Origin: Nemertoderma westbladi | Taxonomy: Eukaryota; Animalia; Xenacoelomorpha | Direction of reading: 5' to 3' | Length of the DNA stretch: 62,206 bases | Assembly: GCA_032718475.1 (NCBI GenBank) | Contig: JAUCBJ010000987.1 | Span: 1-62,206 of the forward strand | The notes under the pieces: model-generated | What the model was told of the DNA's origin: nothing | Databases searched by the model: none | Seen by the model: only the letters and a program-made list of their open reading frames with translations | Shown here: positions 7,720 to 57,895 of the stretch, piece by piece | How the letters are laid out: every line of letters starts with the position of its first letter | How positions within the stretch are numbered: the stretch's first letter is position 1 | Made by a program: the position numbers and the translations under genes

Positions 7720-7826
7720 TCTTCGCCCATTGGGTCCTTGAATATTCAGATTAATGCTGGGATAAATATTTGAATTTTGGTATACTATCGGTAAAAATTA
7801 ACACCCTAAATTTTATATTACTATTA

Positions 7827-18871: not shown

Positions 18872-19059
18872 TATTTTAAAATTAAAACAACTAGATATAT
18901 GTTCTAGAACATTTTATTTCTTATTTTATTTATGTTCTAGAATAGTATAATATAATAAGTTTCTATTGTTGTAGAACTCTTCAACGTTGCCACTAATACC
19001 CAATGATATACTCTATGTTTTAAAAATGTAGTCTATACGGAACTCTAGCCCAATTAAGT

Positions 19060-30072: not shown

Positions 30073-31500
30073 CTATCGTCGTCCTGTCTGGGTCGCTTCA
30101 TTCCCTCTGGTTTGTCTTCCTTGAGACTCCAGTTCTCTCGGTCTCTTCCTCGCGAAATTGCCCTCAGAGACCACTGGCATGGGCATCGCTTGCAATCCTG
30201 ATGTCGACTGTTTCGGCGATTCTTCTGTCCATCCTAGCTCCTCCCCCAGAAATTCGCCCAAGCTCCCTGATCCCCACCGTAGCTCGTCCAGGTTCTTGGC
30301 CTCGAACCCGTAGTCCTCTCCTCTAGCTTCCGCCTCTCTTTCGTCTGCCTCCCTCCTTTCTCGTCTGGCGACTTCTTCCAGTCGCTTCTCTTCCAGTCTA
30401 GCTGCCTCCAGCTTCTCCCACCTCTGATATGGTGTATCCACCTCCCTGCCTACTAGATGCCGGCAGTTGTAGTATACCGACTCGCCCTTCAGCCCCGGGT
30501 GGTCTGCCAGACCTTCGAAGGCCACCTTGAAGGCTCTTCTGTAGTTCAGGGGTGATCCTGACAGCAGAAACACCATTGGCTCTCTTCCGATAACCACGGC
30601 CATGAATAGGTTTAGTAAACCTATCATTATCCAATCCTCCTGCAGGATATATCGCTTCTGATATATCTTTATCACTCCTCTCTGGAACTGATACACCTCC
30701 TGTTTCCGTGGCCTCGCTCCCCACTTCAGCGAGTTCGCCAGCTCCGCTCCGTACTCCTCCCTGAATTTACCCCAGTCCATCGGCTTGTGGCAGACGAGCC
30801 CCATGCGCTGGCCCATTGCCACTGCTCCGCAATGTCCTGTCTTCTCTATCAATCCCAACCCGTCTGGCCCTGTCATGGCCATGTAGACCGCTTGCATGTC
30901 CAGGAGGTTGGGAGTCTCCGGTCTGACGATCCTCTCTGCATCGTCGTGGATCGCCGATCCCACCTTCATCGTCGACTTCTCCCTTACTAGGTTCTGCACT
31001 GCCCTTGGCAACCGGTTTAATTTCGGCCCGCTCTTCTACCCATACGTTCCTAGCTCGAATAGGAATATGTCTCCATTTGGCACAGCCAAATGCAATAGTA
31101 TGGTTCTGGCCGACCCCACCGACCCTCTTCTCGAACCCTCGTCGTCTTCCACAGTCCCCTCGTCGTCTAGGACCATGTATCCTCCCCTGTTTACGGACTC
31201 TACGAACCTCCTCCAGTCCTTTCTCGGTGGTTCCCTCGGATACTTCGGTATCCCGAACTTCGCCTCGTCCCCTTTCACTACGTAGTGGAAATGCTCGAGG
31301 ATCGCGTTGTCTAGCGACGGTGTCCCGTAGGTCCCGACCAGTCGCCTCTTGTGCATCTCCCTGAAGTGGTCTTGCAGCGCTCGCGCTTTGTGACCCTTCG
31401 CTAGCGGGTGAAGTCTACTAGTATCTCCTTTCCACTTCTTTCCGTCTTTCTCTTCCTGACAAGTCTCTCCGCCATTACAAACACTCCCGATCGCTCACCC
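30073..31500 (-). pseudogene. ORF3 of B2: DEDDy 3'-5' exonuclease (WRN/RNase D-like), frameshifted
   Basis: ExoI MVLDDEG, LPRAVQNLV...KVGSAIHDD (ExoII), LLDMQ, W...QKRYILQED (ExoIII-like). The start is approximate. Confidence 0.65.
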
Positions 31501-32027: not shown

Positions 32028-32290
32028 TCTACTAATTCTGCTGACTCTACTAACTATACTAACTACACTAACTCTACTAACCCTCTAACTCTACTAACTC
32101 TCCAACTCTACTAACTCTCTAACTCTACTAACTCTCTAACTCTCTTACTCTACTAACTCTATAACTCTCCAACTCTACTAACTCTCTAACTCTACTAACT
32201 CTACTAACTCTCTAACTCTACTAACTCTATAACTCTCCAACTCTACTAACTCTCTAACTCTACTAACTCTCTAACTCTACTAACTTTACC
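32028..32290. repeat. (CTCTAA/CTCTACTAA)-type microsatellite
   Basis: Visible directly in the sequence. Confidence 0.9.
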
Positions 32291-32297
32291 AACCCTA

Positions 32298-32575
32298 ACG
32301 GTACTATGTACCCTCTTACTCCCGTGGTATGTTTATATACCACACTCCCTATACTTCTAACTCTAACAGTACTATGTACCCTCTTACTCCCGTGGTATGC
32401 CTATATACCACACTCCCTATACCTCTAACTATCTACTAACGGTATTATGTACCCTCTAGCCTCCCGTGGTATGCCTATATACCACACTCCCTATACCTCT
32501 AACTACCTACTAACGGTACTTTGTACCCTCTTACTCCCGTGGTATGCCTATATACCATACTCCCTATACCTCTAT
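32298..32575. repeat. 68-74-bp tandem repeat x4 with internal hairpin
   Basis: TGTACCCTCTTACTCCCGTGGTATG units near 32301, 32369, 32442 and 32516. Confidence 0.85.
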
Positions 32576-32745
32576 CTGCCTACTTACTTACTACTACATA
32601 CTATCTACTATTACTTTCTTTTTCTAACTTTCTATTTATTTCACTTCTTTATTTTTATTTTTTTTATTTTTTTTATATTTTGTGTGGGAAGGGCGTCTCG
32701 CCCTCAATCCCACCCCCCTCAGTCCAACACTTGGACGACTAAACT

Positions 32746-34000
32746 CTATGGTGCCCCTTCTAATAGGCAGCACTTCCCTACAGCCCTCCTGTAGGTCTTC
32801 CTGTCCTTTGCTCCTATCTTACCCCCTATCCGCACTTCCACTCTAGTGTCTCTAGTCTCTCAGTGTCTACCACTCTCGCTAGCCTCCACTGGTTAATGAT
32901 GATTGTGTCGTCAGTGACGATCACCAAGTCACCTTTCTTCAACTCTCTAGTGGTGTTTCTCCACTTGCTCCTCCTGTGTAATGTGGGTAGGTATTCCTCG
33001 ACCCACCTCCTCCAATACTCGGCGCTTATCGCCTTGGCGACTTTCCAACTCTGTCGGGAGTGTATGTCATCTGGGTCTACACCCTGCATGTCGATGGTCG
33101 CCGGCCTTTCTATCAGAAAGTGGCCCGGTGTTAGTACGTCTAGTGATTCTGGGTCATCATTCTCCGGGTATAGCGGTCTGCTATTGATGATTCACTCACA
33201 CTTAGCTAGCACCGTTCTTAGTATGTCCTCAGTGACCATGTGGGTGTTCATCAACTTTGTCATCAGACGTTTAGAGCTACCCACAAGCCTCTCGACACAT
33301 CCTAAAGTATGTGGCACATACGGCGTCCTCCTTTCCCATTTCACCTGTCGCCTCTTCATGGCCGCCCTGACATCGTCTCCCTCTAGGATGTCAAAGGCCT
33401 CTGCCAACTCGTTCTCCGCTCCCACAAAGTTAGTCCCATTGTTGGAATAGATCACTGCGATTGTTCCACCTTTGCGGTCTCTAAATCTCTCTAAGGCATT
33501 AATGAATGCTGATGCCGTAGCGTCCTGCGCGAGTTCTATTCCTACCGCCCTCGTGTTGTTGCATACGAAGATGATGCCGTAGCGTTTCTCCGTGTGTCAC
33601 ATCACCCTGATCTTAATCGGCCCGAACATGTCTACGCCGCAGTGCATGAATGGCGGGTCGTGCTGTCTCACTCTACTGGCCGGTAATGGCGCCATCTCCT
33701 GTACGGCCCTCTCCTTTCTCGTCCGTCGGCAGGTCTGGCACTGCCCCACTACCGCCTTCACCTTCTTCCTTAGCTGCATGATCCATAAAGTCCTCCATAT
33801 CTCTGTGAGGGTCTGGTTGGTGCCTCCGTGTAATATCGACTTGTGGGAGTCCCAAATGATCTGGTGGACTATCGGCGATTTGTTGGGAATGATTACGGGT
33901 TTTGGTGGGATGATTAGGCTGTTGTTGTTCAGCACTCTGGAGTTCATCACCAGAATCCCATCATCGTTTAGTTGAGGGGACAGCGCGTTGAGCTCGCTGA
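32746..34000 (-). pseudogene. Bel/Pao integrase, disrupted
   Basis: H..HGG...C..C zinc finger, QEMAPLP, GVDMFGP, SNNGTNFVGA, YWRRWVEEYLPTL. Contains stops and frameshifts. Confidence 0.92.
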
Positions 34001-34106
34001 CCCGACGAAGATGTTGTTTATATGTTTATATATATATGTAAAGGTTATGAGGTCTCGGGACCGGTACTAATGCTTTACTCCGATATAACGGTGTTACTTA
34101 CATTAG

Positions 34107-35658: not shown

Positions 35659-37418
35659 CTACAGTCGGAGTACTATAGTAGGGAGTCTTTCTACTCTTAT
35701 AATTTGGTCTGTTGACTCTCTATTACTTACGTCTACATTAGCTAGCTCCCTTCTCACCGTAGGGGGTAAGTTAGGCAACTTATGTCTGTGGGTCGCTCTT
35801 CTACGTCCATTTGAACGAGATTTATTACTTTTACACTCGGAATCAGTATTAGTACCTTCATCTGAGGAGGTAAATCTATGTCTTCTGGGAGTAGATCGAC
35901 TCAGTAGTTGCATCTGAGTAGCTGCCATTTGTTTATTTAAGTAATTTTGTTTTGCCTGAATGCTCTCCAACTCTAGTTTTACCTTTGCTTCAGCTGCCCT
36001 TCGTTCAGCTTCTACTGTGGCAGCTTTACGTTCTACTTCTGCCGCCGCTGCCTTTTGGTTAACTTCCGCTGCTACTGCTGCCGCCTTTCTATCAGCTTCT
36101 GCTGTTGCAGCCGTTGCCGCCGCTGCTCTTTTATCAGCTTCTGCTGCTGCCGCTGCTGCCTTTTTATCAGCTTCTGCCGCTGCCGCCTTTCTATCAACTT
36201 CTGCTGCTGCAGCTTTTAATTCAGCTTCCGCAGTTGCAGCTCGTTTCCGATCTTATATCTGTCCTTTCTTTATTTGTTCTCTTTTGTCCATCTCGATGAG
36301 AATGCTTTCATCAAATTTAGCCTGCTCCACAGCTAATATCTCCGCATCTTGGGAGTCCAAAATGAATTTGGCTTCTTCACTATTGGGGTGAAGACCAGCT
36401 AGAAGTCTCCTTAGCTCTTTGTCACCTATAAATCATTGATAATCCAACAGATAGATGTCAATAGCATCCTTCTTCTGCGGTTTTTTGGATACCGCCTCGC
36501 CTTCCATATGGGAGAAAGTTGCATCGGTTGATTCTCCACAGGCTATGCGTTCAGCTAGCTGAGCCTTCCATTGTGTTGTTCCCTGGACTTTAGCATTCAC
36601 TCGTTGGAACCAAGTCTTTACTGCCACCTGCAGCGATGTATCTTGACTTCTCTTCGAGGCCTCTTCAAAGGCTGAAAGGATTAATCTGATCCTCAATATA
36701 TGTTCTCTTACTTGGTAAAGCAGTTCTCCCTGCTCTTGAGGTCCCTGTTGTTGTTGAAATAACTGTGCTTCTACTCGTCCCAAGGAGTTGAAGAATCCCT
36801 GGACATATCCTGCTGCTGACCTCTTCCATACAGCAGGATCTCGGGTGTCCCTAACTACGCCCATTTGATATAAATTTTCCCAGGCAGCCCTGATAAGTTA
36901 AATGGGAGTCCGGGTCCGGGGAAGTTCCATTGAGTCTCTACAATAGACCTTAGTTCTTCCAACGGGTATCCAGCGTAACTGTCCCTGGTCGATCTCATAT
37001 ATCTCATCCAGTCCGCTTGATGTTCTTCTACGGCTATAAGTACTCTAGTGAGCACTGCCCCAGGAAGAATCAAAAGTGGGTCGTGATATACCACTGTTTC
37101 CATCCTTGCTCCGATCTCGGGCGTTAACTCTTCGGTGTCGGAACTAGAGTTACTACGCAGTTGAGAAATAACTTCTCGGTTCGGGTACTGTTGCTGTTTT
37201 TCAGCCGTCGCTTGGTCTCGCTTAACTTGAGCCCTTGTGCTTATAATAGACCTATGGTGCTTCACTAGCCTAGGGTCCGACACGACTACTGTAGGGATGA
37301 CCTTTCTTACAGTAGGAGGGGACTTAGACTTTGGTCGGGGCCTTCCTATGCTTTGATCTGGGTCACAGATCGTCCTTTCCAAGAGACTATCTGACAGTGT
37401 TTGTTTTGTGTCAGACAT
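35659..37418 (-). pseudogene. gag-like N-terminal region of A2, disrupted and truncated
   Basis: Homologous to 1-1618. Has a 1-bp deletion near 36890 and a premature TGA at 36433. Confidence 0.75.
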
Positions 37419-38535
37419 AATTTATTTTATAGTTGAATGCCTATCACGATAATAACAGTTAAAGTAAGTCTAGGGGAAATCAGTATCAACTGTCAGTCTC
37501 GTAGTTACCGATATTGCTACTCAATGTAACATGGTATATATCTAGTATTAGAATACCGGTATACACCTATAGTATATATAACAGTATTATTACAGACTAT
37601 GATCAGTCACAGAATACCGGTATATAAGTTTAGCCTAATTTATATAAATATATAATAAGCTTACTGTAAACACCGGTAATGTCAATAATTTAATAATAAC
37701 TGATTATCCAAATTTTAGGAATTATTTCCCTTTACTTTATGGCTGATATTAAGCAGTAGGTTCTACTGATATTAAGACCTTTTGATGTATAATAGGCCTA
37801 TTAATTTATAAATCTGATTGAGTTAATTTATAAATATATATATATATATATATACCCGTGATGGGTTTTGTCAATATTTGAAATAAATGTTATTATTTCT
37901 GAGTAAGAAGTCACTACACAGAGGCTGGACGCTCTCAGTGGAGTGCTACTTGTTAAGACACTAAATACTGATAATTCTACTTAACTAAGTTACTTATCAC
38001 TACAAATTACTTACGTATCGGGTTAAGATTACACAATCTCTAAATAAACAATGAACAAGTTAAAGTACAATTTTTAGGGTAATTTAACAAGAAATTTACG
38101 AACCAGACTAACAAAGAGTTAGAATTTCTGGTTCTTACAGACTGACAGGAATTGAGGTATTTTGAAACCACTAAAGTAGTATTCAGTACGTTGTGTTGTC
38201 CAGATAAGGAAATGCCACCGCCTGACTGCTTATAGTCTACACTATACGCACTACTTACCCAGAGTGTCCTATACCTAGAGATTACTTATCGAAGCCAACT
38301 ATAGCTAATGGACCTATTAACCACGTTACAACACAAATATACTGCCTACGCACTAAATTAACTTTCAGGAAAGCACTGTACTCTAAACCCTAAATTAGGT
38401 ACTAGCTCTTATACAATATATAACTTACAGTTAAATATATGTGAACAGCCAAAAGAGCCACGGTATCTGCTGGAGTGACCGGAGCACTAAAACACCAGTC
38501 TGTCCTACTCCAAGCAGTCCTGAAGTAGTACCGGG

Positions 38536-40717
38536 TGATAAACAACCGCGACCTCTATACTAACAGCAGAACTGTTGAACAGACAAATACCCGTTAATAT
38601 CCTTCTGCCAACCTAATGAGCTCTCGTCTAACCAATAAGACACAAAGACTGCTCTACTGTTAAGTAAAGGGGATCAGGAGCGTGATATTACTAAATTGTA
38701 AAGGTTGCTAAATACAAAACCGCTACTTACCGTTAGATGGCGCTAATCTGCCGTCCGCTAATATATTTACTAAATTTACACAACTCCTGCAAAATCGCTT
38801 GTTCCTTTCTCTACCGATCGTTCGATAGAGAGCTAACTGTTCGAATCTATGAGCCACGCGGGAATAACCAAAACAATAAACCCGAGTCGGCTCCCTAAGC
38901 TTACTTAAGACGAGTGCGAGAGGCTTTGCACTCAGAGTATTCTTACGCCTAATTTTACCACTATCAAAGCACGCTATTGCCTACGTCCTTTCTAATCGCG
39001 AATACTGGGGGTTCCCTAACGTAATGTGTGAATGCGAGAATATTTAAAATATCAAAATGGTACAGTATTTGTCTTTACGTGGATAGTATCACTCTGGGTC
39101 TAAACTTGCCTGCCGCTGGCTTTAGGCCAGCAAATTACTAGCGTGTTGTGTGTACCGAATAGTGCGATCTAGCTGATTGCCCGCTAATGCAAATAACCGC
39201 TCAGCGTGAATAGTTTACAGTACTCTAATTATTACCTTAGCTACTCTCCGCTATGCTGCGTACTAATTCCTAATTTTTACTAATCAATTACAGTCACAAA
39301 TATGTAACAGCGTACTAATTACTAAGAGTTCCAGAACGCGTAATTCTAATTTACTACGCAACAGGTTTCGCTAGTAACAGCCTAAATTGCCGTATTACTT
39401 TGACCTAATCAGTAACTAATTGTTGTAACTAAGAAATAGAAATCAATCAAAGAGAAAGGGGCGCCTACCTAAACATTCATAATCATAGGCACACTTCAGT
39501 ATCACACCAATCAGCATCAGCAATCACAGTTCGCAATTATGCAGTTAACTACTGTATAGCTCACAATTATGCGATTCACTATTCGTACTCCACACTCAAC
39601 GTTATAATACGCGCAGGCCTCTCCCGGATACATCTAGGCTTCCTAACTAACCCGATTCCTGCCCCCCTAATACTAAATAGAGACGAAACCTGGATCATCA
39701 GCCCCCTAGTTACTGTACCGGCGAATGGTCTGCGTGTTACAGTGCAAATGCCCGCCCGCAACGGTGAACCAGCGTTGCCCGTCTTTGAATCCTCCGCTCT
39801 CCCCTAGTCGCTCAACCCCCCGATGTGCCCACCGCCTACTGGCACCTTAGCCCTCATTATGCTAATAGCTACCGTAGCGGCACATGCAAATCACAAAGTC
39901 TGACAGTCTCAGAAATCCCTTAGGATTATTGCGTAGAAAGGAATCACATAGAACCATTAACAAAGATAGAAATCATAGTTCCAGTTGTAATTAGCAGTAA
40001 TCGATAGGATTAATTGAGAAACACAATCAAGAATAATCGCACTAGCAAATCATTTGGAGAAATTAATCGAAAACAGCAAATTGCAGAAATACGCTAAAAT
40101 ATCAGTCAAAAAATGAATAGAGACAGCTCAGCAAGTACAAGGGTGATAGATAGAGCTCTACCGGCACACCGCCAATTTATAGGTGATCCGAGTGGGATGA
40201 TGCAATAGGGTGACTCAATCGCTCTCCTATTGGCTCTCCAGTCCGCGCTAGCATTAAACCAAGCTGGAAGCAGTTAGTCCAATAAGGAGGCCGGATTGTA
40301 GCCCTATTGCTCCCCAAACCTCAAATTATTACCATATATGGTAATGGATCATGTTCCTGGCTGCTGAATGGCCAGGACAGCATCCCTATATGCTAGCCCT
40401 ATTGAAGCTAATATCAGCAAGCACGAAATCCAGGGTCCGAATAAACTTGCTACCCTGGAACTATCTACATATATCCTAATACAAAATTACGTAGGTAGGG
40501 CTACATATTATACAAAATGGATGGATTCAAATATATGGGCGTTTTGGTTTCCCTATCTAAATATCATTGTGCTATTATGCCTTATCTAAAATATTATGCT
40601 GCACAACGGACTAATATTGCGTACAGTATAACGGACTAATATATTATACTGTATAATGAACCAATATATTATACTGTATAATGGCTAATAATGTGTACAG
40701 CGCCATATACCGTAACA
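38536..40717 (-). repeat. 3' LTR of C (2182 bp)
   Basis: Near-identical direct repeat of 55087-57241, with a few substitutions and short indels. Confidence 0.95.
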
Positions 40718-41206: not shown

Positions 41207-44200
41207 TTAACGACCCGCTCCTGGGTTCTTCGGGCTCGCTCCTCTCTTTCGCCCCCTGCCCAGATACACCAATCGTCCTCTAGTCGACTCTGTTGATGGC
41301 GTCCGTGAGGCGTCACTCCCCGGAACCGGCGACGATGTTCCCTGAGCCCCGACAGACTCCCGGCTCGTACTTCTCCCTCGGCCTCGTCCCAATTGTCGTG
41401 CTCCCGTGGTCGCTTCCGCCAACTCTTCCTTATGCAGTTGCACACGCGCTTTTTCAGACGCTCCCTGCGCCTTGCGCTGCAACCTTTGCGCTTCTATAAT
41501 AGCGTGATAGTGGTCGTCCTTGACTTGATGCTTGTCTTGGACCCCTCCTCCTGGTTCTTTCCGCGAGCTTTGAGCTCCAGCGGTCGTCGCTGTGGTCGCT
41601 GCGATCCTCTGTTCCTCTATCCTCTCAGCGGTCAATGACCCCACTGGCACATGAGTCAACAGGAATTCGTTGCGGTATTGTATAGCCGCCATCCTCCAAT
41701 CACCTCGCGCGCGTACCACTTTTCTAGTCTCCGTAAATACACCCTTCGTGATGCGATCGCAAATAGCAACGAAGTTCCAGGTGTACTTATTGTCCATATT
41801 CAATTGTCTGAAGTATTCTCGGACTACGATAACTCCAGTGTTCTGTGGAAGGTCTTGAGCAGTTAGGATGAGTTCCTGATATTGTGGTAGCGATTGTAGA
41901 TATGGCTCGTACGCAACATGCGATGGGTCTACCGCCCAAAATCCATACCCCGCCTTAAATGGTAACCAACGCATCTGCGCTTGAATATGGTAATCAGCCA
42001 CACTCTCCCACTTATCTAACATCTCCCGAAGTAGGTTAGCGCTATGGTTTTGAAAGGAATCATCTCGCAGCTGACATCTCGCGCTACGATGTCCCTTTAC
42101 CCCACAATATCCGCATTGAGAAATGAAGACGGTGCACGTGTGAAACGAATGGTCGGTCTCATTACACCAACGACAGACCTTATGCGGCGCCTCTACTACC
42201 GCGTCGCACGACTTTAGATTGTGCCTTGTGCTGCCGCACAACTTGCACCTACGCGCTTGTGGAAACCAGGCCCTCTCGTATATGAGGTCTCCAATCGGTT
42301 TCGCACTTCCTTCTTTCCCAATGTCTAATACGATGTCGTCCTCTCCGGTCAACGGTTGTCGATCCGGAACAAAGTAAACATCCTCGCCCTTGTCCTCTAT
42401 CTCCAATATTTCCTCCCGCGTTCGTTTTGGATGTCTTCTCCACCGGAAGATCTACTCCGAACATCTCTACTAATGTCTCCGGCCAGCCCTCCTTAACAGG
42501 TCTATCAGCCTCCGAGTGGAAGGGAGTACCAAACCCGCGGGTTTGATTCCCGAACCACTTCTCCAAAGCTTCTGGCGTCGGATACTCCATCGACGGTCGG
42601 TCTCCCAAATCTCCGATGTTCTGTCGATATACTCCTTCGAATATCGCTAATCCTCTCCTAACCATCGACGTATTCTCTAACGATTGGTTGAAGAACGGGG
42701 TTAAGAAACGCTTCATCACGTCGGATTGGATTCCCCCTTTCGAGCGAACGTATTGATCTCCTCCGTATACCAATGGATGACGCTTCAAAACTCGCGCAAC
42801 GATATCCGCTAATAAACAAGTCACCGTGTTCGACTCAAGCACCAAATAATATTGTAGCGACGCACGGGGTGGCGCGCAAATGTTCCAATACACTAACGCT
42901 TGCCGCTTGAAGTGGGATTTGAACTCCGCTCCCGGTGGCATGTTGTATTCACCATACGCCTCCTCGTACTTCTTCTGCGTCTTTAACTTAAAGTCCCAAT
43001 TATACAATAAGTGTGCTATAAAGCCCATACCAGTCTTGGCAGAGTTGGGATACTCCCTATAAATTCCAATATCCTGTGCCCATAGCAACAATAGCTTGGT
43101 GTCGACAAACGGTCTCGGCAATCTATCTTCCAGATCAGTCATGGCGTTGAAGTCACTCTCCAAATCGCTCTGGACTCCCGATCCTACCTTGACGTAATCT
43201 TGGTTGAGAATAGCCTCTCTAACTTTCTTGGGTAGCATCCTGGCGTCGATACGCTCCGCTCCGTGCATACCTCCAAAATCGGTTCCCTAGGATCCTTCCC
43301 CTTCCGATATTGTGTCGTTATGATGGGCTCCGGTCTCTCTCGATCCGCCCTCACACGCATAAACACATGAGTCACACCATCGGCCGCACGAATTTGAATG
43401 CACTTGCTAGTCAAACATTCTTGATGGGACCCTCCTTCATTATCATAAAACATCACCCTCCAATCTTGCAGTGATTCCTCCGTTTTCCTCCACTGACGCT
43501 GAATCTCGTCTGATGGGGTCCACATGCGCTCGATCGCCTTGTGGTCATCATATCGGGTATAAGAACCCTTCCTCCTCAGCCACGTCTGGTCTACCTCCTC
43601 GTTGTCTGGGAATGTAGCCACCGCGACCCATACCTTGATGTACTTATCCAACCATCCGAATAGTTTGCTCTCCTTCCCCGGAGCTCCAATCTTATCCAAT
43701 GTGTCGTAATCTGTGATCTGCATTGGGACATCACGCAAGAACTTCGCGCATAAAACTTCCCGTAGACAGTCAACGTTCCAATGGTCCGCCATTCTTACCA
43801 TCGGCAAGAATCGTATCGCTTCTCGCGACTCCGGATGATCTACTAATATCGCAGGTTCGGTGCCGTCGGAATAATACACTGGTCGGGGTTGAGATACGAC
43901 CTGTGGAACAAATCCGGTCACTCTCCTCGTCTCCTCTTGATGTCTATCCGCGGTCTTATTATACTCCGCTATCCTATTCTCAACTAACTCTTTCGCCTTC
44001 GCCGCTCGCTCCTCCTGCCGCAACGCGTCTATGTCGTCCTGATGCTCGGGCGTGAGGGTTCTCACTCGGTGAGGTGAAGTAAACGCAGTCCAGGGACTCG
44101 AGAGCTCCAAACCCGCGGGTTTGGTACCCGAGTCCCGTGCCGCTTCGCGCCGCGCCTCTAGATCCTTATAGGCTCGGTACAGCGAAATGGCCGCTGCCGT

Positions 44201-44896
44201 CTCTATCAAACTGGGTGTCGAACAGGGTTTAATCTCCGTATACGGATCTAATGTCGTAACGGTCGGCGTAATGGGTCTCGGAGGTCGCTTTCCGCTGAAG
44301 TCGATACTGATCATCGGGTTGCTCATCGGGTAACCTCCCTCGTTGTATCTAAGGAATTGGTGAGCTGGACATCGCGTTAATATCGGTTCTGGATGTTGCT
44401 CGTCTAGTCGATCGGGAATCGCCACGTCCTGTTTATTCATGCATTCACCACACTTGTAGAACAGCTTGTACACGCTGAAGACTTTCGGCGTCTCCTGATC
44501 CTCGCCTCGAGTCCTCCGGTACAGATGCATTCCATCGAACTGATCTCGGACTGCAGGTAGCGGCTCCTCGTGTCGTAAATACATATTCATATGGTATAGT
44601 CGTGCGATTTCCTCGTCCGGATCTGCGCTGATGTCACACACGTCCAAAGCGAAATCGTAGGGATACCGAGTGCGATACTCTCTCCGCAAAACTTCCATCC
44701 GGTCCCCCAACGCTCTCATTCTTTCCCTCCGTAATTCCTTATCATAAGTCGGTTTGTATTTCCCGTTTAGCTCCATCACGGACCGCCCATGGTAGTAAAC
44801 GTTAGAGTCTTTACATCCTGGTCGCGCGAATGGTAGCTCCGCCTCCTCTCTGGCAGTAAATCCTCTGCGCGGTTGCGCTCTAATATCCTTCTCCAT
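41207..44896 (-). pseudogene. ORF3 of C: unknown N-terminal region, DEDDy 3'-5' exonuclease, three CCHC knuckles and basic tail (two frameshifts)
   Basis: VMFYDNEG; LPKKVREAIL...VKVGSGVQSD; FVDTK; KTGMG; W...QYYLVLES. Knuckles CKLCGSTRHNLKSC, CRWCNETDHSFHTC and CGYCGVKGHRSARC. Confidence 0.72.
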
Positions 44897-45663
44897 TATG
44901 CCTCGCGTATATACATATATATATCCCAATAAGTGCCGTTACGTAACCAATTACACTGTGGGTAAATCAGTTAGATGTCGCCGAAAGACAGACCTCCCGA
45001 ACCCCCCCCCCCCCCCCCCCGCTTTCCAGCAGTTCAGGTTCGACTCTCTAGATCCCGTCTCTTCCTAACTAACTATCCTCTAACCTATTCCCATGCATAG
45101 CGCAAAAACTTTGGAGATAAACTGGCCGTGACCAACTCACTTTTTGATGCCCAAACTACTCCCATTACTCGTACTAAACTACAGTAGTTAGAAAGGACCA
45201 TAGCCACAATACTCGACTATACCAAACCCACAGGTTTGATAATCGAATATCACACATCCTGCAAACTACTGAGTGGGGTCCATGTACGCCTCTGGTGCTA
45301 CTAACCTTTAGCACCTTAGTTGCACTGTTGGCACCAATCTGTGGAAGTTGCTAAACTCAATTTACACTCCTACGTAATATAGCCGTCACCATGGTTTCTA
45401 AATGCTATTTTCCAGGCTTCACGACTTTTCAAATTACTGTTTATCTATAGACGAATTCTAAAACGCGTCTATACACAGCGTCTGGAATTGTCTTGGGTTC
45501 ACTTCTAATTTTTAAAATTTTAAATTTTCCAAAATTTTTGAAAATAAAATTTTGTTTTGATACCCACCAGACAAAACTCAACGCAAATCACCACAACCCC
45601 GCTCCTATGCATTTCCTTGTATTTGCATACGAGGAATGCATACGAAGTGAGTTGCGTCCAACA

Positions 45664-47889
45664 CTAATTCTGTTTTGAGGCAGGAGACAAATTATAATCT
45701 CCCGTCTCGATGCGTGTCTCCTCTAATAACACGATATCTTGGACCGGTCGGTCCAAGGTGTGCAAACCATTAGTTTTACACTTTTTTGGGTGCGGACACT
45801 TGCACCTAATTTTCACAGTGACTGTGCGCACTATGTTTTGCACGTCTGGGTGTGTGTGCAAGATCACTCCTGTCTCCCAATACTTTCTCTTGACAATGGG
45901 TTCGGTTATCAATACGTAGTCTCCCCTTTGGAGACTCCGAACCGTTTTGTACCACTTTGTTCTGGTGGATATGGTGGGAAGATAGTATTCCCGCCAATAT
46001 TCCCAGAATGTGTACGCAACAAATTGAGTCATTTTCCAGCTTTTACGACTATATAGGTCGGCACTAATGGGTTCTGATGCCGGCACAAGAAATGCTGGAC
46101 TCTGCATTAGCAAATGATTCGGCGTTAATGCAACACCGTCTGGCAACATAGCTATCGGCCTCGAGTTTAGGGTATGCTCGATTTCAATGAAAGCTGTGAC
46201 CAGTTCGTCATCGGTAAGTTGTTTGTTTACAGGCAACGTTTTGGCAATGGCCTGCTTTACAGAGCGAACTAAACGCTCCCAACTTCCTCCTCTCCAAGGA
46301 CTTTCTGGAGTATTAAATCTCCACTCTACTCTTTGCGGCAAAAGTGCTGCAGAAATTTCCTTATTCTGTGCTGCTTTATGAGCCGCGTTCAACTCGCTAT
46401 TCCCTCCGACAAAGTTTGTACCCTTATCGGAGTAGAACGCCTTTACTAGTCCTCTCCTGGCCATAAATCTCTTTAAGGCCAGGAGCAGAGATTTGGTCGA
46501 CATGTCTGCCACACGCTCAATGTGTATGGCTCTACTAGCCATGCATGTCAGTAGCAGACCCCATCGCTTGTGGGTCAGCCGTCCACTCTTTGCTTCAATC
46601 GGACCAAAACAGTCCACCCCTGTGTTCGTAAAGGGTGGGTCATATGCCTGCACTCTCGCTTCCGGGAGTTCAGCCATCTCCTGTTCCAATACTCTGGCGT
46701 TCACCCTCTTGCAAACCAGACAGGCGTCGTACATAGTGCCGACTGCCCTGCTTGGCTGCAATAGAATGAATCGCTGTCTCGCTGCCGACAGACAGTGTAA
46801 CCTTCCCGCGTGATGCAACCTCTTATGTATATCCCATAGAATCGCTCTTTGCAATTCTATTGGGTGACTAGGGATTATCACTGGGAACCGAAACTGTGAG
46901 TTTATGTCGACAGTCTGGATTCTCGATCTATGACAAATCAAACCCTTATGGATTAATGGACTCCATTTTCTAAGGGGTTTATAGAGAACTGGTCGTTGAG
47001 CCGATAATAGATGGAATTCTTTTGGGAAGGCACACATTTGATAATGCTTCAAATGCCTTAACTCCGCTTGATCAATCTCATCCTCTGTCAGAGGTTGTTT
47101 CAATTTCCGAATTCGCTCACTATTGGCGCTCGATGGTTCTCTCAAATGTTTCGAATGTTTTAAACAAAGGTACGAAACGTATCGGCTTAACCACGCAGTT
47201 CTTTTACAAATTGTCAGCCAAGAGGCAGACGAATTTAGTAATTTGTCATAAATACTGCATGACTCTAATGCCAGCGACGGTTGTCCGCTAATTAATGGAA
47301 GTTTCGAATCCAAACCCGCAGGTTTGGAAACCAAAGGATCCATCGTGTCGGTCATTTTCTGTCCATCACTTACCAATTGTGACTCCGGTTTAGTCTGTAA
47401 GGGTGGTTTTATGTCGTAACTTACCCTTCCGGACCTAGTAGTCACGTAAGTCTGTTGGTCTGACAGGTCTCCGGGCCGCTCCAATGACTCTTCAGGCCGC
47501 TCAAATGACTCTTCAGGCCGCTCCAATGACTTAAGTTTGGCCTTAGACTTCGACTTAGAGACTTTCTCCACCTTGACTTCTGCATCTTCAGGCATCGGAT
47601 TGGTCACTATCTTTAGTCGCTCTGGCCAATGTTCCTGTGTCCTCGTTAGAAAATCAGGTCCATGCAACCAAAACTCCTGCGACTCTTCCTGACAGAATTC
47701 CGCCGGCATTGCACCTCTCGAAGTTATGTCGGCCGGATTCAACACTCCCAGACAATGTCTCCATTGTTCCTTCGTCGAAAAGTCGACGATCTGAGCGCGT
47801 CTATTGGCCACGAATGTCTTTAGTGCAATATTGTCGGCCGCAATGTATACTAACACTAAGGATGCGTCCGTCCAATAGAATAAGGTCAA
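45664..47889 (-). CDS. pol 3' part: RNase H C-terminus and integrase
   Basis: YWTDAS, NPADITSRG, HHAG...CLVC, GVDCFGP, SDKGTNFVG and GGSWERLV motifs. Confidence 0.95.
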   Translation of the reverse strand: MTLFYWTDASLVLVYIAADNIALKTFVANRRAQIVDFSTKEQWRHCLGVLNPADITSRGAMPAEFCQEESQEFWLHGPDFLTRTQEHWPERLKIVTNPMPEDAEVKVEKVSKSKSKAKLKSLERPEESFERPEESLERPGDLSDQQTYVTTRSGRVSYDIKPPLQTKPESQLVSDGQKMTDTMDPLVSKPAGLDSKLPLISGQPSLALESCSIYDKLLNSSASWLTICKRTAWLSRYVSYLCLKHSKHLREPSSANSERIRKLKQPLTEDEIDQAELRHLKHYQMCAFPKEFHLLSAQRPVLYKPLRKWSPLIHKGLICHRSRIQTVDINSQFRFPVIIPSHPIELQRAILWDIHKRLHHAGRLHCLSAARQRFILLQPSRAVGTMYDACLVCKRVNARVLEQEMAELPEARVQAYDPPFTNTGVDCFGPIEAKSGRLTHKRWGLLLTCMASRAIHIERVADMSTKSLLLALKRFMARRGLVKAFYSDKGTNFVGGNSELNAAHKAAQNKEISAALLPQRVEWRFNTPESPWRGGSWERLVRSVKQAIAKTLPVNKQLTDDELVTAFIEIEHTLNSRPIAMLPDGVALTPNHLLMQSPAFLVPASEPISADLYSRKSWKMTQFVAYTFWEYWREYYLPTISTRTKWYKTVRSLQRGDYVLITEPIVKRKYWETGVILHTHPDVQNIVRTVTVKIRCKCPHPKKCKTNGLHTLDRPVQDIVLLEETRIETGDYNLSPASKQN

Positions 47890-47936
47890 TGTCGTGTCTA
47901 ACTCCTCAATTATCTGCTTACTTACCTCGACCGAAA

Positions 47937-49493
47937 CTACAGCGCCTGTAACTCTGCACGAGGGACAGTCATGTATTTGACCGGCATTGTCTTTGATCTA
48001 GAAGTCACAAAGGCCGTCTCAAACTTGTCCTGACTTACCTCTCGGCGAAGGTAGGCTACCATACCAAAGCCGGTGTCACTTGCGTCACTAAATAAGTGGA
48101 GTTCGAGATCAGCTGGAAATACCAGCTGATTCGGAAAGTAGGAACGGGGTACATCTATATTTTTCAATAGATGCAACTCGGCTTCCCACTCCCTCCACTG
48201 CTTTGCATGTATAGGAGATATTGGTTCGTCCCACTCTACGTCGGACAACCAAATTTTCCTCATGCACGCTCGTGCCTGTAATATAACCGGACTGATAAAG
48301 TTCATTGGGTCAAATAGTCTACTTAATGTCGATAAGCAAATCCTCTTTGTCAAAACTTTGTCTGGGCTACTGGGCTCAAATCTAACTCTTACCTGGAACT
48401 TATCCGTATTCGGGTTCCAAGCGAGTCCCAGTACTCGCGCCATGGGGATTGGTTCTACCCCCAATTCTATGTCTCCGCTCCCGCGATCTTTCACCGGGAA
48501 CGATTCTAATAGGGCCTCCGAGTTAGTAGTGAACTTGGTCAGAGGAAATCCCCCTGTAGCCAAGCACTCTTGCAGGCCGTGAGCCACTTCTATGGCTTGT
48601 TCCGCCGTGTCCTTGGACACCAATCCGTCGTCCATGTAGAAGTTTCTCAAGATGGACTCGATAACCTCTACTGGGTACTTACCAATCTGGGCTGTTGCCG
48701 TTTTCTTTAAAACGAACAGCGTGCCATTTGGACTATCGCGGGCGCCAAATATCCTAATGTACATCTGGTATGTAACCACTGGGCCGGATAAGTCTTCATT
48801 CTCATACCAGAGAAAGCGAAGGCTATCCTGGTCTGCCTTACAGGCTCTTACCTGGTGGAACATCGCCTCGATGTCACAAGTAAATGCGAATCGCCGCTGT
48901 CTAAAACGCAACAGTATTCCAATCAAATAGTTATTCAGGTTGGGACCATCCATCAACTCTGAATTCAGGGACATACCTCTGTAGACTGCTGCGCAGTCGT
49001 TGACTACTCGGACTTTGTCAGGCTTGTCAGGGTGAGTCACATAGTGGTGTGGAAGGTAATAAGTCTGGTCTGTCACTAAGTCAGGGTCCTCTACCTTCCC
49101 AGCAAATCCCTTGGCGAAATAGTTGTTGATCTGGGCGCAATACTTCTCCCTAATGTCCGGATTCTTTAACAACCGAGCCCTTACTCCGTTTAATCTTTTC
49201 AAGGCTAAGTTGTAGTTGTTCTCCAACTTAGGTGGTTGTCGACGCCACAACATTCCAACTTCAAAATGTCCAGTCGGTAGCAGACGTATGGTATCTTCCA
49301 TCATCTCCAGCGACAGTTTCTCATCAGTAGACATGGCTAGGTCATATCCACCGGGTTCCATTGCGTCCCTATCCAGCCATTCGACGGTTCTGGCTCCTGT
49401 CTCGAGGTCCTGGCGTATCAATTCCTTCTGTAGCTCCTCCTCACTGTATTGGAAAATGTCTAGGTCTCGATATTTAGCCACTTGACCCTCCAC
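47937..49493 (-). CDS. pol: reverse transcriptase and Pao RNase H N-part
   Basis: YYLPHH, KVRVVND, DIEAMFHQ, FYMDD, LHLFSDAS and PRAEL motifs. A 1-bp deletion lies near 47942. Confidence 0.95.
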   Translation of the reverse strand: MEGQVAKYRDLDIFQYSEEELQKELIRQDLETGARTVEWLDRDAMEPGGYDLAMSTDEKLSLEMMEDTIRLLPTGHFEVGMLWRRQPPKLENNYNLALKRLNGVRARLLKNPDIREKYCAQINNYFAKGFAGKVEDPDLVTDQTYYLPHHYVTHPDKPDKVRVVNDCAAVYRGMSLNSELMDGPNLNNYLIGILLRFRQRRFAFTCDIEAMFHQVRACKADQDSLRFLWYENEDLSGPVVTYQMYIRIFGARDSPNGTLFVLKKTATAQIGKYPVEVIESILRNFYMDDGLVSKDTAEQAIEVAHGLQECLATGGFPLTKFTTNSEALLESFPVKDRGSGDIELGVEPIPMARVLGLAWNPNTDKFQVRVRFEPSSPDKVLTKRICLSTLSRLFDPMNFISPVILQARACMRKIWLSDVEWDEPISPIHAKQWREWEAELHLLKNIDVPRSYFPNQLVFPADLELHLFSDASDTGFGMVAYLRREVSQDKFETAFVTSRSKTMPVKYMTVPRAELQAL

Positions 49494-52400
49494 TATCTGG
49501 GTTCGCTATCTGTCTGGTCATTGTGGAGTGGTTCCGACAACCTAACATTATCGGGAATCAACTCCTCGTCCGACTCGCTAAAGTCACTATAGTGGTCAAT
49601 ACAGGTTCTCCTAAACTCGTCTATGTCTGGTGGTTCTACTAATGGTGGTTGAGTTATAGGCTGTAATTCTTCGCATCTGTCTATTGGCTTGTCGCCACCT
49701 GTAAACTCATAAGACATGGGTACTCTTGTATACCAACCTAGTATGGTCCTATGGGCATGTGGTCCGTTGACATGCGGCTCAGCTGGTCTTGTTTCCCATA
49801 TTTGGTGTGCGATCAGCTGTTCTGCACCAATCAACATAGAAACATTCCTATAACCTACCTGGTGTCTGGGTATCCTGAGCTTGTCAAAATACTCCTGTGC
49901 TATGGGACTCATCGGCGGCACCTTACCTAACTGCCTGCCGAATCCCTTCATAGCTAGACACTTAAATCCGTCCAATGGCAAAGCTTTCCGTTCTTGTCGA
50001 GTGTGTCGGTCTCTCGGAAGTAGGGAGTCTAGTTCCACCGAAATTCTGTGTCCCTTGAGGTCACCTACCCCATGCATAGACTTCAACTCTATTTGGATCT
50101 CCTCTGCGTCCTGGAAGCTAGAAACAGCTCTCGCCACTTCCTCGTCGATATACGATAATGTGGACGCAGTGTCCAACATCACATATATTCGCTTTGATCC
50201 CTTATCTCCAGTAAGTTTCACTGGAATCACGCTGAATATTTCCGACGTGGCCGATGATAAATACGTCCGCGCGCTGGTCGATGAACTATCCGCAGTGAAA
50301 CCTTGGCAGGTCACTTCTCTCGCGCTCGACTCGCCATCCTCGTCCGACGAACCTGGTTGGTAACCATCGTCCTGGATGCCAGTGTACGTATTCCTCCTTA
50401 TCGATACGGGTTCTTTGCTCCCCTTCCTGTGAGGATTTCGCTGTAAGTAACGGTCCGTTGGGGTATGGAAATCCGCATGTAGCAACTTGTGATGTAGTCT
50501 GCCGCATTCCATGCATCCGTCCTTGCTGTTCGGGCACTGCCGCCGTACATGACCTGGCGCAAGACATGCCCAACAGGTGTCCAACGTCCGCACTTGAACT
50601 CTTCTTTGTTCCGAATTTAATTCTTTGAACCGTCTGCAACTATCTAACTTATGGTCGTCAGATCTTACCTCCTTTAGTAAACAGTATTGGCAACCTACAA
50701 ATCCATCCGGCAACTCCTGTTGCTTTAACCTAGGTTTATCTAACCGCTCACCTGACCATACTCGCGAGTCTGATCTAAAGGCTGGGGTACTCGAATTATA
50801 TTTGTCTACTGAGTTAAATGTCACAGTGGTCCTGTCATCGTCAAAACTTACCATAGACTTACCGGTAACAGGTTTAGACTCTCTCATATTCTCTTCTGAG
50901 AAGTTTGATTTCATCTCTGCTACTGCGTCTGTGGCTATCATGTCATGAATATGCTGAAGTGTCAATACTTTACCTTGGCCCTCCAACTTATTCTCTAATT
51001 TGCGCCATTTCTGTCTGTAACGCATGTTTAAACGTCTTATTACGCTCTTTAAAACTTCGGCGTGATCACCATGATGAGGTAGATTCACCGTCTTCAAGAT
51101 GTCCAATGCGTTCGAAATAGCGTTCGCTAAGTTCAACAGCTCTAACGGAGTTGTAATCCTTTCGCCCTTACCCAAGTCTTCTACTATCGACTGCGCCATC
51201 TTGGTTTTATTCCCGTAGATGTCACTAAGCGTCTTCATCGCTAACTCAAATGCTCTCTCATTGCCGACGAAGTTGTCAGCAATGGCTCTAGGTTCTCGAT
51301 GGAGCATCTGAAGCAAATAGTTGAACTTCTCGTTGGGAGTAAAGGTGCTGTTGGTCAGCTGCTCGTCGACATAGGTTTTGAAGGTCCTCCAGTGCTTGTG
51401 GTTGCCCATAAACTTCTGGGGTTGTTGCGTCGGCAGTCCTTGCCTAGCAGCAAACTTACCTATGTCCCTAAGGGTTGCGTCGTTCCGGGTTAACAAATGG
51501 TTTAGTTCCGCAGGGTTGTTAAGTCTGGTCCTTTCCCGGTGGTTCAAACTTACCTGCTCCGCGTCCGTCCTTCTTTCCTTATAGTTTCGGAACTTCTGAC
51601 GTCTCATGTCTTCCTCTTCATCGCTTGACTCGGTGTCAGTCCTTAGCGCTCGCGATGGTTTGCGCGCCGAGGCCCTGACCCAGGCCTCCTCAATAAATCT
51701 TTCCGCCGAATTTTCGAAATTGGGATTATGGTTATTTGGGACAGGCGTCCTTACCTGAGGTCTATGTGGTATAGTCTCCTCCGATATGCGTACTCGTTGA
51801 CTAGGCTGGACTTTGTCTAACTCAGGCCTGCTAGGATTTGAATTACTTCTTACCTGGGCTGCTTCCTTTAACCGTAGGTTGCTAAGCATGTCCGTTATAG
51901 GTTGGATGTGCGGCGATATAGCTTGCGCTAAACTAGCACTTAACTCATCCCTCGTAATAAATTCCTGGCTAGGGTTCTGTTGTATAGTCGGCTCTATCTG
52001 AGTAATCCGCTGTCTCTCATATGATCCCTCTTCCGGTTTAACCCGGAAGTTCTCCGTCGAACTGGGTCGGCGCTCCATCCGCGTATTCCAAACCCGCGGG
52101 TTCGGTTCGCCCAATACTCGTCCCGTTGGAGTTTCTTCTCTAAATTCTCCGTTGTCTCGTTCGGTATACAGTGGTGCGGTGTTCCGATGACGTAGATCCT
52201 GCGCGATAGGTGAAGCACTAATACCAACTGGCGTGCGATATGTAGAGAATGGTTTAGCGATCCGTGTACTCGTAATAGCCGGACCGGGTATAGGAATTCT
52301 GGTCGTCGTCGACTCGCGTATGGTCGGAGTTCTCGCTTCCTGTTCGGCCTTCTGCAGTGCGAACAGTTCTCGCAACTCGGTCCCTACACTCGCCCCACAT

Positions 52401-53893
52401 TCTTCGATCATTCGCATCCCCTTCTCGGCGATTTCATTCGCCTTCCTGGTCCGTTCTTCGCTCTCTAAATCTAATCTCGCACTTTCCAACTGCGCCAGTT
52501 TACGTTCTTCTTCTTCCCTCGCTCGTCTCGCTACGCCCTCTTCTTCCAGTCGCGCCTTTTCTTCATACAACATCTGTCGCTCCTTCTCGATCTCGAGTTC
52601 GCGTTCTTTCCGTTCGCGTTCGAGTTGGAGTTCGCGCTTCTTCGCTTCCTGATCGCGTTCGAGTTGGAGTTCGCGTTTCTTCGCTTCCCGTTCGCGTTCA
52701 AGTTGGAGTTCGCGTTCCTTCTGTTCGCGTTCCGCTTGCTCACGCTTACCTTTGTCTTCCAACTCCCGCAACTTTGCGTCTAACTTACGTGCACGCTCCC
52801 GTTCCCGCTCAGCTTCCTTCCGTGCTTCCGATGCACGCAAAACTTCCGCCTGCTGTTCGTCCAGTCGGCGTCTTCTCTCCTCCGCCGAGTTGTGAGAAAC
52901 AAGGGATCTAGCACATATAACCTTCCCTCGCGCGTGACTAACCTGGGAATCGCCACTGTCTCTGGATGCATCATCGGGTGGAGTCAACGTCCTCTGTTGG
53001 ATGTTCTCCGTCGTCGGTAGCACCTGACCCGGTACCACCACTCCATTCTGCATCAGCCAGCTAGTAACTTCCCTCTGATAACGGCGCTCTTCTTTATCTT
53101 GGATCTCTTCTCGCTCCACTAAGTCTCTTAACTCTGCGTCACTCACTCGAGTCGCCTGCGCTTGTGATGCCCATAGCAGCCAGTTCTCCGTCCTAACTCG
53201 TCGGAATCGCTCCGGTAACTCGCGGTGCTCCAACAAGGCTGCTAAAACCCTGTCGTAAATCCTCGTCGCCACGTCGCTCGACTGAGACTATACTGCCTTC
53301 TTCGCTAGGACTGCAAGCTCCTCCGTCTGCTTGAATAACGCTGAGTTATATCCTCTTCTAATCTCTACTAACTCTACCCTCCCGATGTTCGCTGAGTCAG
53401 CTAACATCTTCCTTACCTTGTCCGTCGTCCGAGTTATATGTCCGGCGTGCGCGCGAAGTTTCTTCTTTATCGCAATGTCTAGTTCTCTCTCGCTTACCTG
53501 ACTCACACTCGGTGGACTTGAAGGATTATTTCGGGAACTACGGGTACTCCTTACAGCCGTCGGGACCACGGCACTTACCATACCCACAGGGCTGGAAACC
53601 GGGCTCCGGGCTCTCGCTTCTGCTACACTACCCTCCCTATCACTCACCTCCGTCCGGGCTGCTGTACAATCCTTCCTTACAGTAGTGGTAGGGGATCCTA
53701 ATACTATTACTGGAGGTTGTTCTTCTTCCTCACTAGTCACTGTCTCGTCCTCCTGTTCACTTACGTCAGCGTCGCTCGCTGCGTCGTCATAGTCGGCATT
53801 GTCGTCAACAGTAATATTTACGCTATCGTCAGTCGGCGGTCCGGCCGCCGTCTCATAGCTGTCCTCTAGTGCCTCTTTATCTGAGACACTCAT
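49493..53893 (-). CDS. gag and protease, with an in-frame TAG at 53288-53290
   Basis: ORFs 53288-53893 and 49493-53272 are in frame. Motifs KFMG..KHWRTF, CWACLAPGHVRRQC...CMECGRLHHKLLH and MLDTAS. Confidence 0.9.
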
Positions 53894-55074: not shown

Positions 55075-55086
55075 TGCGCGTATTAC
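55075..55086 (-). promoter_or_regulatory. Non-tRNA primer-binding-site candidate of C (sense GTAATACGCGCA)
   Basis: Flush with the 5' LTR. 11 nt form an inverted match to 56156-56166 and 39605-39615. Confidence 0.65.
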
Positions 55087-57241
55087 TGATAAACAACCGC
55101 GACCTCTATACTAACAGCAGAACTGTTGAACAGACAAATACCCGTTAATATCCTTCTGCCAACCTAATGAGCTCTCGTCTAACCAATAAGACACAAAGAC
55201 TGCTCTACTGTTAAGTAAAGGGGATCAGGAGCGTGATATTACTAAATTGTAAAGGTTGCTAAATACAAAACCGCTACTTACCGTTAGATGGCGCTAATCT
55301 GCCGTCCGCTAATATATTTACTAAATTTACACAACTCCTGCAAAATCGCTTGTTCCTTTCTCTACCGATCGTTCGATAGAGAGCTAACTGTTCGAATCTA
55401 TGAGCCACGCGGGAATAACCAAAACAATAAACCCGAGTCGGCTCCCTAAGCTTACTTAAGACGAGTGCGAGAGGCTTTGCACTCAGAGTATTCTTACGCC
55501 TAATTTTACCACTATCAAAGCACGCTATTGCCTACGTCCTTTCTAATCGCGAATACTGGGGGTTCCCTAACGTAATGTGTGAATGCGAGAATATTTAAAA
55601 TATCAAAATGGTACAGTATTTGTCTTTACGTGGATAGTATCACTCTGGGTCTAAACTTGCCTGCCGCTGGCTTTAGGCCAGCAAATTACTAGCGTATTGT
55701 GTGTACCGAATAGTGCGATCTAGCTGATTGCCCGCTAATGCAAATAACCGCTCAGCGTGAATAGTTTACAGTACTCCAATTATTACCTTAGCTACTCTCC
55801 GCTATGCTGCGTACTAATTCTTAATTTTTACTAATCAATTACAGTCACAAATATGTAACAGCGTACTAATTACTAAGAGTTCCAGAACGCGTAATTCTAA
55901 TTTACTACGCAACAGGTTTCGCTAGTAACAGCCTAAATTGCCGTATTACTTTGACCTAATCAGTAACTAATTGTTGTAACTAAGAAATAGAAATCAATCA
56001 AAGAGAAAGGGGCGCCTACCTAAACATTCATAATCATAGGCACACTTCAGTAACACACCAATCAGCATCAGCAATCACAGTTCGCAATTATGCAGTTAAC
56101 TACTGTATAGCTCACAATTATGCGATTCACTATTCGTACTCCACACTCAACGTTATAATACGCGCAGGCCTCTCCCGGATACATCTAGGCTTCCTAACTA
56201 ACCCGATTCCTGCCCCCCTAATACTAAATAGAGACGAAACCTGGATCATCAGCCCCCTAGTTACTGTACCGGCGAATGGTCTGCGTGTTACAGTGCAAAT
56301 GCCCGCCCGCAACGGTGACCTCCCCGCCAGCGTTGCCCGTCTTTGAATCCTCCGCTCTCCCCTAGTCGCTCAACCCCCCGATGTGCCCACCGCCTACTGG
56401 CACCTTAGCCCTCCATTATGCTAATAGCTACCGTAGCGGCGCATGCAAATCACAAAGTCTGACAGTCTCAGAAATCCCTTAGGATTATTGCTTAGAAAGG
56501 AATCACATAGAACCATTAACAAAGATGTAGCAGTAATCGATAGGATTAATTGAGAAACACAATCAAGAATAATCGCACTAGCAAATCATTTGGAGAAATT
56601 AATCGAAAACAGCAAATTGCAGAAATACGCTAAAATATCAGTCAAAAAATGAATAGAGACAGCTCAGCAAGTACAAGGGTGATAGATAGAGCTCTACCGG
56701 CACACCGCCAATTTATAGGTGATCCGAGTGGGATGATGCAATAGGGTGACTCAATCGCTCTCCAGTCCGCGCTAGCATTAAACCAAGCTGGAAGCAGTTA
56801 GTCCAATAAGGAGGCCGGATTGTAGCCCTATTGCTCCCCAAACCTCAAATTATTACCATATATGGTAATGGATCATGTTCCTGGCTGCTGAATGGCCAGG
56901 ACAGCGTCCCTATATGCTAGCCCTATTGAAGCTAATATCAGCAAGCACGAAATCCAGGGTCCGAATAAACTTGCTACCCTGGAACTATCTACATATATCC
57001 TAATACAAAATTACGTAGGTAGGGCTACATATTATACAAAATGGATGGATTCAAATATATGGGCGTTTTGGTTTCCCTATCTAAATATCATTGTGCTATT
57101 ATGCCTTATCTAAAATATTATGCTGCACAACGGACTAACATTGCGTACAGTATAACGGACTAATATATTATACTGTATAATGAACCAATATATTATACTG
57201 TATAATGGCTAATAATGTGTACAGCGCCATATACCGTAACA
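55087..57241 (-). repeat. 5' LTR of C (2155 bp)
   Basis: Sense TGTTACG...TTTATCA. Candidate TATAAA near 56713-56718. Confidence 0.95.
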
Positions 57242-57884: not shown

Positions 57885-57895
57885 AAATCTATTAA
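57885..57895 (-). promoter_or_regulatory. Non-tRNA primer-binding-site candidate of A2 (sense TTAATAGATTT)
   Basis: Flush with the LTR and an exact inverted match of 58590-58600. Confidence 0.65.

Follow-up and report, generated by a model that had tools for sequence, protein, structure and literature searches.

An exonuclease-like third gene under purifying selection in a Bel/Pao-type retrotransposon of Nemertoderma westbladi

What would an LTR retrotransposon do with a very long exonuclease-like gene in the position of env? This question is raised by a 62,206-bp stretch of Nemertoderma westbladi DNA (assembly GCA_032718475.1, contig JAUCBJ010000987.1, positions 1 to 62,206), hereafter called the window. 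Self-comparison of the window delimited an LTR retrotransposon of 18,706 bp on the minus strand, termed element C, with direct repeats, TG...CA ends, and a 5-bp target-site duplication (Table 1). Its genes follow the order gag (DUF1759), protease, reverse transcriptase, RNase H (Peptidase_A17), and integrase (DUF5641). Judged by these domains and this gene order, element C is of the Bel/Pao type, a formal placement within Belpaoviridae not being claimed. The insertion appears young because its LTRs are separated by only nine substitutions and five indel rows, and this copy is dead since gag carries an in-frame stop and gag-pol shifts frame twice. The first TGG lies 18 nt from the 5′ LTR, and the 11 nt just past this LTR are complementary to its middle part, a behavior found at 1 of 2,041 control positions. 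We regard this complement as a self-priming-like signature that apparently stands in place of a tRNA site. Element C itself sits inside another repeat (36139-38535 and 57241-58277), which encodes an alanine/lysine-rich repeat protein without known family and has an uninterrupted, diverged copy (72-81%) at 347-4203.

Table 1. Coordinates of the retroelement features in the window
Feature	Position	Strand	Remarks
5′ LTR of element C	55087..57241	-	TG...CA ends, 2,155 bp, 5-bp target duplication on both flanks
11 nt just past 5′ LTR	55075..55085	-	complementary to mid-LTR 56166-56156 (also 39605-39615)
gag and protease region	49493..53893	-	DUF1759 E 5.7e-10; one CCHC; DTAS; in-frame stop 53288-53290
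Reverse transcriptase and RNase H	47937..49505	-	Peptidase_A17 E 9.7e-35; YMDD
Integrase with Bel/Pao C-terminal domain	45664..47997	-	DUF5641 E 1.7e-17; Integrase_H2C2 E 2.6e-5
Splice-acceptor-like signal	44956..44974	-	branch point, pyrimidine run, CAG; 60 bp before ORF3 ATG
ORF3 open frames	43184-44938, 42249-43286, 41207-42451	-	three, overlapping
ORF3 frame 1	43270..44896	-	~455-aa N-terminal region of no known family, CxxC...CxxH 44452-44360, then ExoI
ExoI motif YDNE (DxE)	43436..43447	-	three-way alignment
ORF3 frame 2	42431..43264	-	ExoII KVGSGVQSD 43190-43164; ExoIII-like YxxxE (YLVLE) 42848-42834
ORF3 frame 3	41207..42430	-	three CCHC knuckles 42247-42074; block common to P0004; basic RG-containing tail
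3′ LTR of element C	38536..40717	-	versus 5′ LTR: 9 substitutions and 5 indel rows over ~2,150 bp
Element B integrase	32826..34025	-	second, truncated Bel/Pao-type element; 35% identity to element C integrase; DUF5641 E 3.1e-18
Element B ORF3	30073..31494	-	ExoI 31173, ExoII 30966, YxxxE 30651; in-frame stop 31036-31038

The original prediction placed three overlapping ORFs of about 1230 codons between integrase and the 3′ LTR. Reading from the ATG at 44896 to the stop at 41209 indeed gives 1,229 codons with two breaks in this copy, after a 0.77-kb spacer downstream of the integrase stop (45664) and ahead of the 3′ LTR (beginning at 40717). At this base composition, open stretches of 538, 280, and 407 codons would arise by chance with probabilities of 7e-13, 5e-7, and 6e-10, respectively. 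The YDNE, KVGSGVQSD, and YLVLE motifs were found where predicted, as were the three CX2CX4HX4C knuckles, which start at 42247, 42175, and 42115. As also predicted, neither a membrane segment nor other env-like features (transmembrane anchor or signal segment) were detected in ORF3, its top 19-residue hydropathy being 0.88, 1.34, and 0.55 in the three pieces. The tail encoded at 41240-41389 (minus strand) has three GRG repeats in 75 aa. PIWI protein RG motifs bind Tudor domains, and the GRG tail is reminiscent of them; it may equally be a plain basic tail or a nuclear signal. Upstream of ORF3, the acceptor-like signal is one of two strict matches in the 14.4-kb internal region, which suggests that ORF3 is likely made from a spliced message. 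Past the integrase stop, at 45575-45610 (minus strand), a purine run followed by TTGT resembles by eye an old polypurine tract and LTR start, and may be the junction where ORF3 was added.

The first break lies near 43,270, as predicted, and the second lies near 42,430 rather than at ~42410. Other copies were checked at both places and differ there in length from the element C copy, the evidence at the first break consisting of two diverged contigs and loose ends. Since these other copies are, by arithmetic, unbroken at the two sites, the breaks are lesions of the element C copy. Programmed frameshifting was rejected because of these different lengths, and an assembly artifact is improbable as the chief reason, since just one single-base indel separates the two LTRs.

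To what extent does ORF3 have relatives? A HMMER search of 1.84 billion proteins had a single match, P0004 (648 aa, E = 3.5e-6), which comes from one 9.4-kb contig. P0004 shares 26% identity over 162 aa with the middle frame of ORF3, and its separate match to the third frame takes in the three knuckles plus the block that follows (E = 2e-6). The layout of P0004 is thus that of element C ORF3, i.e., an exonuclease domain plus three knuckles, the latter resembling retroviral nucleocapsid, and no match to the ORF3 N-terminus was seen in it. A second relative follows the integrase of element B, a distant element within the same window. Read with X at its stop, element B ORF3 gave E-values of 4e-7 against P0004 and 0.009 against element C, and its remaining part is devoid of knuckles. 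The knuckle fusion and the long N-terminus, both called unusual in the original prediction, hold for element C and are not universal, the knuckles being absent from the surviving part of element B and the N-terminus from P0004. Elements B and C have no detectable DNA similarity, suggesting that ORF3 is old in the lineage or was acquired on two occasions from a common pool. The related gene in so distant an element also makes ORF3 likely to be a lineage-wide helper. Tandem repeats (about 31950-32600) separate the element B integrase from its ORF3. Elsewhere, a Bel/Pao-like gag and protease remnant at 5032-7225 (plus strand) precedes DNA that is 79-81% similar to what lies beyond the element B integrase; this remnant is possibly an internally deleted relative of element B.

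Word-index searches, an insensitive method, found no related protein among 1,523 candidates when the ORF3 middle piece was compared to longer proteins, only P0004 itself among 1,347 candidates for the P0004 domain, and none among the 7,996 scored for the first frame. Given this insensitivity, the N-terminus of ORF3 is unexplained and not shown to be unique. Likewise, no ORF3 relative turned up in phage tblastn or when metagenome, viral, and prokaryote contigs were scanned for patterns.

We then sought support for the exonuclease assignment. In a three-way alignment of element C, element B, and P0004, the DxE, KVGS..D, and YxxxE motifs are in register. The profile of ORF3 was compared by hhalign with bacterial PF01612, represented by a reference of 40 of 98 bacterial PF01612 matches, and gave a probability of 92% and a score of 49.6 over a match spanning ExoI to just after ExoII; none of 60 column shuffles was as good (best, 17.0). 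The probability was 66% with two sequences and rose to 92% with three. The reference profile in turn gave 14.1 bits to P0004 and 4.2 bits to the X-read element C domain, both scores exceeding those of all 500 shuffles, while a reference built from the first 20 loci alone recovered nothing. The ExoI DxE, which is not statistically significant by itself in ORF3, follows a hydrophobic strand and is aligned in all three relatives and to the reference DxE. The ExoII Asp is present and aligned in the three relatives as well. ExoIII, paired by eye with the PF01612 reference pattern, reads YxxxE in all three relatives versus YxxxD in 40 of 40 bacterial references. Because Glu replaces the last Asp, we term ORF3 DEDDy-like with a DEDE site; this Glu could lower activity. 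The four acidic positions and the Tyr are conserved across the relatives at only 24-26% overall identity.

Database scores were weak. No Pfam family scored on any of the three ORF3 pieces, N-terminus included, and P0004 reached E = 0.2 and 11.9 bits against PF01612, whose gathering score is 23.6. NCBIfam and PHROGs yielded nothing meaningful for the ORF3 pieces. In the ESM Atlas, P0004 fell with PF01612 clusters at 0.94 (25 of 30 hits) and the element C ORF3 piece at 0.88, the latter a lead only. The best PDB match of the ORF3 profile was human EXD2, a weak one (E = 0.22). A phmmer match of the middle piece to rotavirus VP4 in PDB (E = 0.04) was dismissed as due to chance. Two AlphaFold predictions had pLDDT values of 33 and 37. 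Since no Pfam family scores and these models are of low confidence, we infer fold and activity only. Nonetheless, the DnaQ-like assignment is supported by the profile comparison and by language-model features, and ORF3 is very probably an exonuclease-like accessory gene. The predicted DEDDy exonuclease accordingly stands as a DEDDy-like assignment (hhalign at 92%, ESM Atlas) and falls in its strict sense, the ExoIII residue being Glu.

Compared with EXD2, WRN, Mut-7, and RNase D (PF01612), ORF3 aligns at ExoI, the following strands, and the LP and KVG..D of ExoII. It differs from these enzymes in scoring below the Pfam threshold, in having YxxxE instead of YxxxD, and, for element C, in a spacing from ExoI to ExoII that is longer by ~20 residues. 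The domain pairing has a cellular precedent in an RNase D-like protein bearing a CCHC finger (PDB 7c42/7c45). Dada DNA transposons are also transposable elements with a DEDDy exonuclease, although their domain, as described in the cited part of that study, is inserted within the DDE transposase and is not a separate retroelement gene (PMC3706591).

To determine whether ORF3 is maintained by selection, we turned to six sequencing runs from four studies that contain the element C stretch or part of it. Contig coverage of ORF3 was like that of gag-pol, and 1,124 and 740 contigs fell on 1.5 kb of ORF3 in two DNA runs, indicating that the element C family has many copies. These copies are diverse, down to <90% identity. 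When the ORF3 variants were ranked by support, 34 of the best 40 of 60 were synonymous, versus 33.5% expected for random transitions (p = 3e-11). Within the same best 40 of 60, the variants segregating in other copies were synonymous in 29 of 30 cases, whereas those nearly private to the element C copy were so in 5 of 10 (Fisher p = 0.002), a contrast that fits selection acting while the family spread, followed by decay once this copy had inserted. Third codon positions hold 13/15, 16/21, and 4/4 of the variants in the three ORF3 segments, again for the best 40 of 60. Since the variants fall at third codon positions segment by segment, the frame switches of ORF3 are real. Four of five further variants elsewhere in ORF3 were synonymous, and so were the listed variants at codons 497-499 (ExoI). 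ORF3 is under purifying selection and is not the neutral one-off capture that had been considered at the outset. Contigs from three runs skip 44422-44750 of the N-terminal region, at high depth in two, and there seems to be a sub-lineage lacking this part, CxxC included.

Which function, then, could be selected? We propose that ORF3 is a selected accessory exonuclease with three knuckles, made from a spliced message, that trims RNA 3′ ends against small-RNA silencing, and we assign this reading a probability of roughly 0.4. ORF3 would likely be expressed from the spliced message as a separate protein, whose knuckles and basic RG tail would hold single-stranded RNA. A two-metal site (Asp, Glu, Asp, Glu plus Tyr) could then shorten small RNAs or their precursors, and the trimmed small RNAs would weaken host silencing of the element. 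Being a separate gene with an acceptor-like signal, ORF3 fits a regulatory protein better than a polyprotein part. Moreover, the DEDD relatives mut-7, EXD1, and Maelstrom are described as acting in silencing in the cited part of PMC5408684. The anti-silencing role is itself tentative, its fold, catalysis, RNA substrate, splicing, and target all being presumed.

A close rival, though one that we hold to be rather unlikely, is that ORF3 assists replication. An exonuclease inside the particle would trim the 3′ ends of RNA or cDNA or the element's RNA primer, or remove reverse transcriptase mismatches, helping to sustain an unusually long genome. However, most Bel/Pao elements to our knowledge replicate without an exonuclease third gene such as ORF3. 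Lying outside the gag-pol polyprotein, ORF3 would presumably have no built-in route into particles, and the divergence among copies, <90% identity at its lowest, gives no sign of unusual fidelity. The replication role does find support in the nucleocapsid-like knuckles of P0004, in the self-priming-like signature found rather than an evident tRNA site, and in the length of element C, 18,706 bp versus 4.2-10 kb in the ICTV profile (PMC8742986). In addition, the sections of PMC5408684 cited here indicate that EXD2/WRN-type enzymes can act on DNA besides RNA, and 3′-end processing was the first suggestion of the rotifer authors.

Less likely again is a bolder view, in which element C would belong to a clade of Bel/Pao elements not yet described, giant, self-priming, and without an envelope, that encode an active DEDE exoribonuclease. 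This enzyme would destroy host piRNAs/siRNAs, or would proofread and trim primers for reverse transcriptase and, like nidovirus ExoN, let the genome reach about twice the described range. If true, the piRNA/siRNA-destroying variant would be an element-encoded silencing suppressor in an animal.

It is also conceivable, but improbable, that the Asp-to-Glu change disables cutting and that the protein binds RNA or jams host trimming enzymes, as EXD1 does. The consistent ExoIII Glu in the three relatives, where all 40 bacterial references have Asp, would agree with such a pseudo-nuclease, and catalytically dead DEDD derivatives work in piRNA pathways according to the cited part of PMC5408684. A dead site would nevertheless be expected to drift, whereas the Tyr and all four acidic residues persist despite such low identity; in the same part of that paper, the rotifer ORF3s likewise have Glu for Asp, at a different position (DEED). 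Finally, a neutral host-gene capture or a chance look-alike without exonuclease identity is largely refuted and very improbable, as the weak database scores, low-confidence folds, and broken element C copy are set against a strong synonymous excess, more than 1,000 contigs covering the gene in one run, and a related gene at the same position in element B despite an integrase only 35% identical.

Few counter-defence proteins are known from animal retrotransposons, and exonuclease third genes have so far been an untested curiosity of rotifers. Juno and Vesta, two of the rotifer elements concerned, are gypsy-like. The precedent invoked by the original prediction is published: in the cited parts of the respective papers, bdelloid rotifer Juno, Vesta, and Terminons carry DEDDy ORFs with DEED (PMC5408684; PMC6431247; PMC5718144). 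Their ORF3s resemble that of element C in being assigned as RNase D-like 3′-5′ exonucleases encoded by a third ORF after pol, with an Asp-to-Glu swap and without transmembrane or env features, a likeness of description (PMC5408684, cited part). Unlike Juno and Vesta, element C is of Bel/Pao type with the swap giving DEDE, not DEED; compared with the rotifer genes in these sections, its ORF3 has ~1,230 aa, three CCHC knuckles, a long N-terminus, and visible purifying selection. The variation analysis in the cited part of the rotifer study concerned only env-like and GDSL ORF3s and found it near-neutral (PMC5408684).

As for the Bel/Pao context, element C shares with Belpaoviridae the gag, PR, RT, RH, IN order, the DUF1759, Peptidase_A17, and DUF5641 domains, and a third gene after integrase. 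In the ICTV profile of this family, third genes are only env-like, genomes measure 4.2-10 kb, and LTRs 0.2-1.2 kb (PMC8742986). In contrast, element C has a nuclease-like third gene without membrane segment and no evident tRNA-type site directly after the LTR, and its 18.7 kb with LTRs of 2.2 kb falls outside the described size range. The main text of a survey of 62 genomes sets full-length BEL/Pao elements at 15 kb at most, and the word exonuclease does not occur in it (PMC3118150). Nor is a Bel/Pao exonuclease mentioned in the cited parts of PMC9094657 (Atlas virus), PMC6338049, PMC3985635, PMC4131045, and PMC11662393. Our literature search, with most subscription papers, supplements, Repbase, and GyDB outside its scope, yielded no Bel/Pao element with an exonuclease, and nothing on the effect of Asp-to-Glu at ExoIII. 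For Cer13, a BEL element of C. elegans, Malik, Henikoff and Eickbush are said to have noted a 3′-5′ exonuclease in 2000; if this is right, the Bel/Pao context of ORF3 would be no first. An exonuclease-like third gene is now seen in a further LTR superfamily, where two highly divergent elements carry it, one of them from a young family of many copies. Purifying selection on this gene is clear, and the two elements have the active-site variant in common. The purpose of such nucleases thus becomes testable with a natural intact relative, P0004, and by small-RNA comparison of families with and without the gene.

Two other features were observed in the window. A LINE-type endonuclease and reverse transcriptase lie at 13758-16467, between long inverted repeats at 7825-8538 and 18164-18873. 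An intronless ORF at 26192-27022 (minus strand) encodes a protein with a hydrophobic segment on its N-terminal side and a RING finger (zf-C3HC4_3, E = 9.5e-10) on its C-terminal side.
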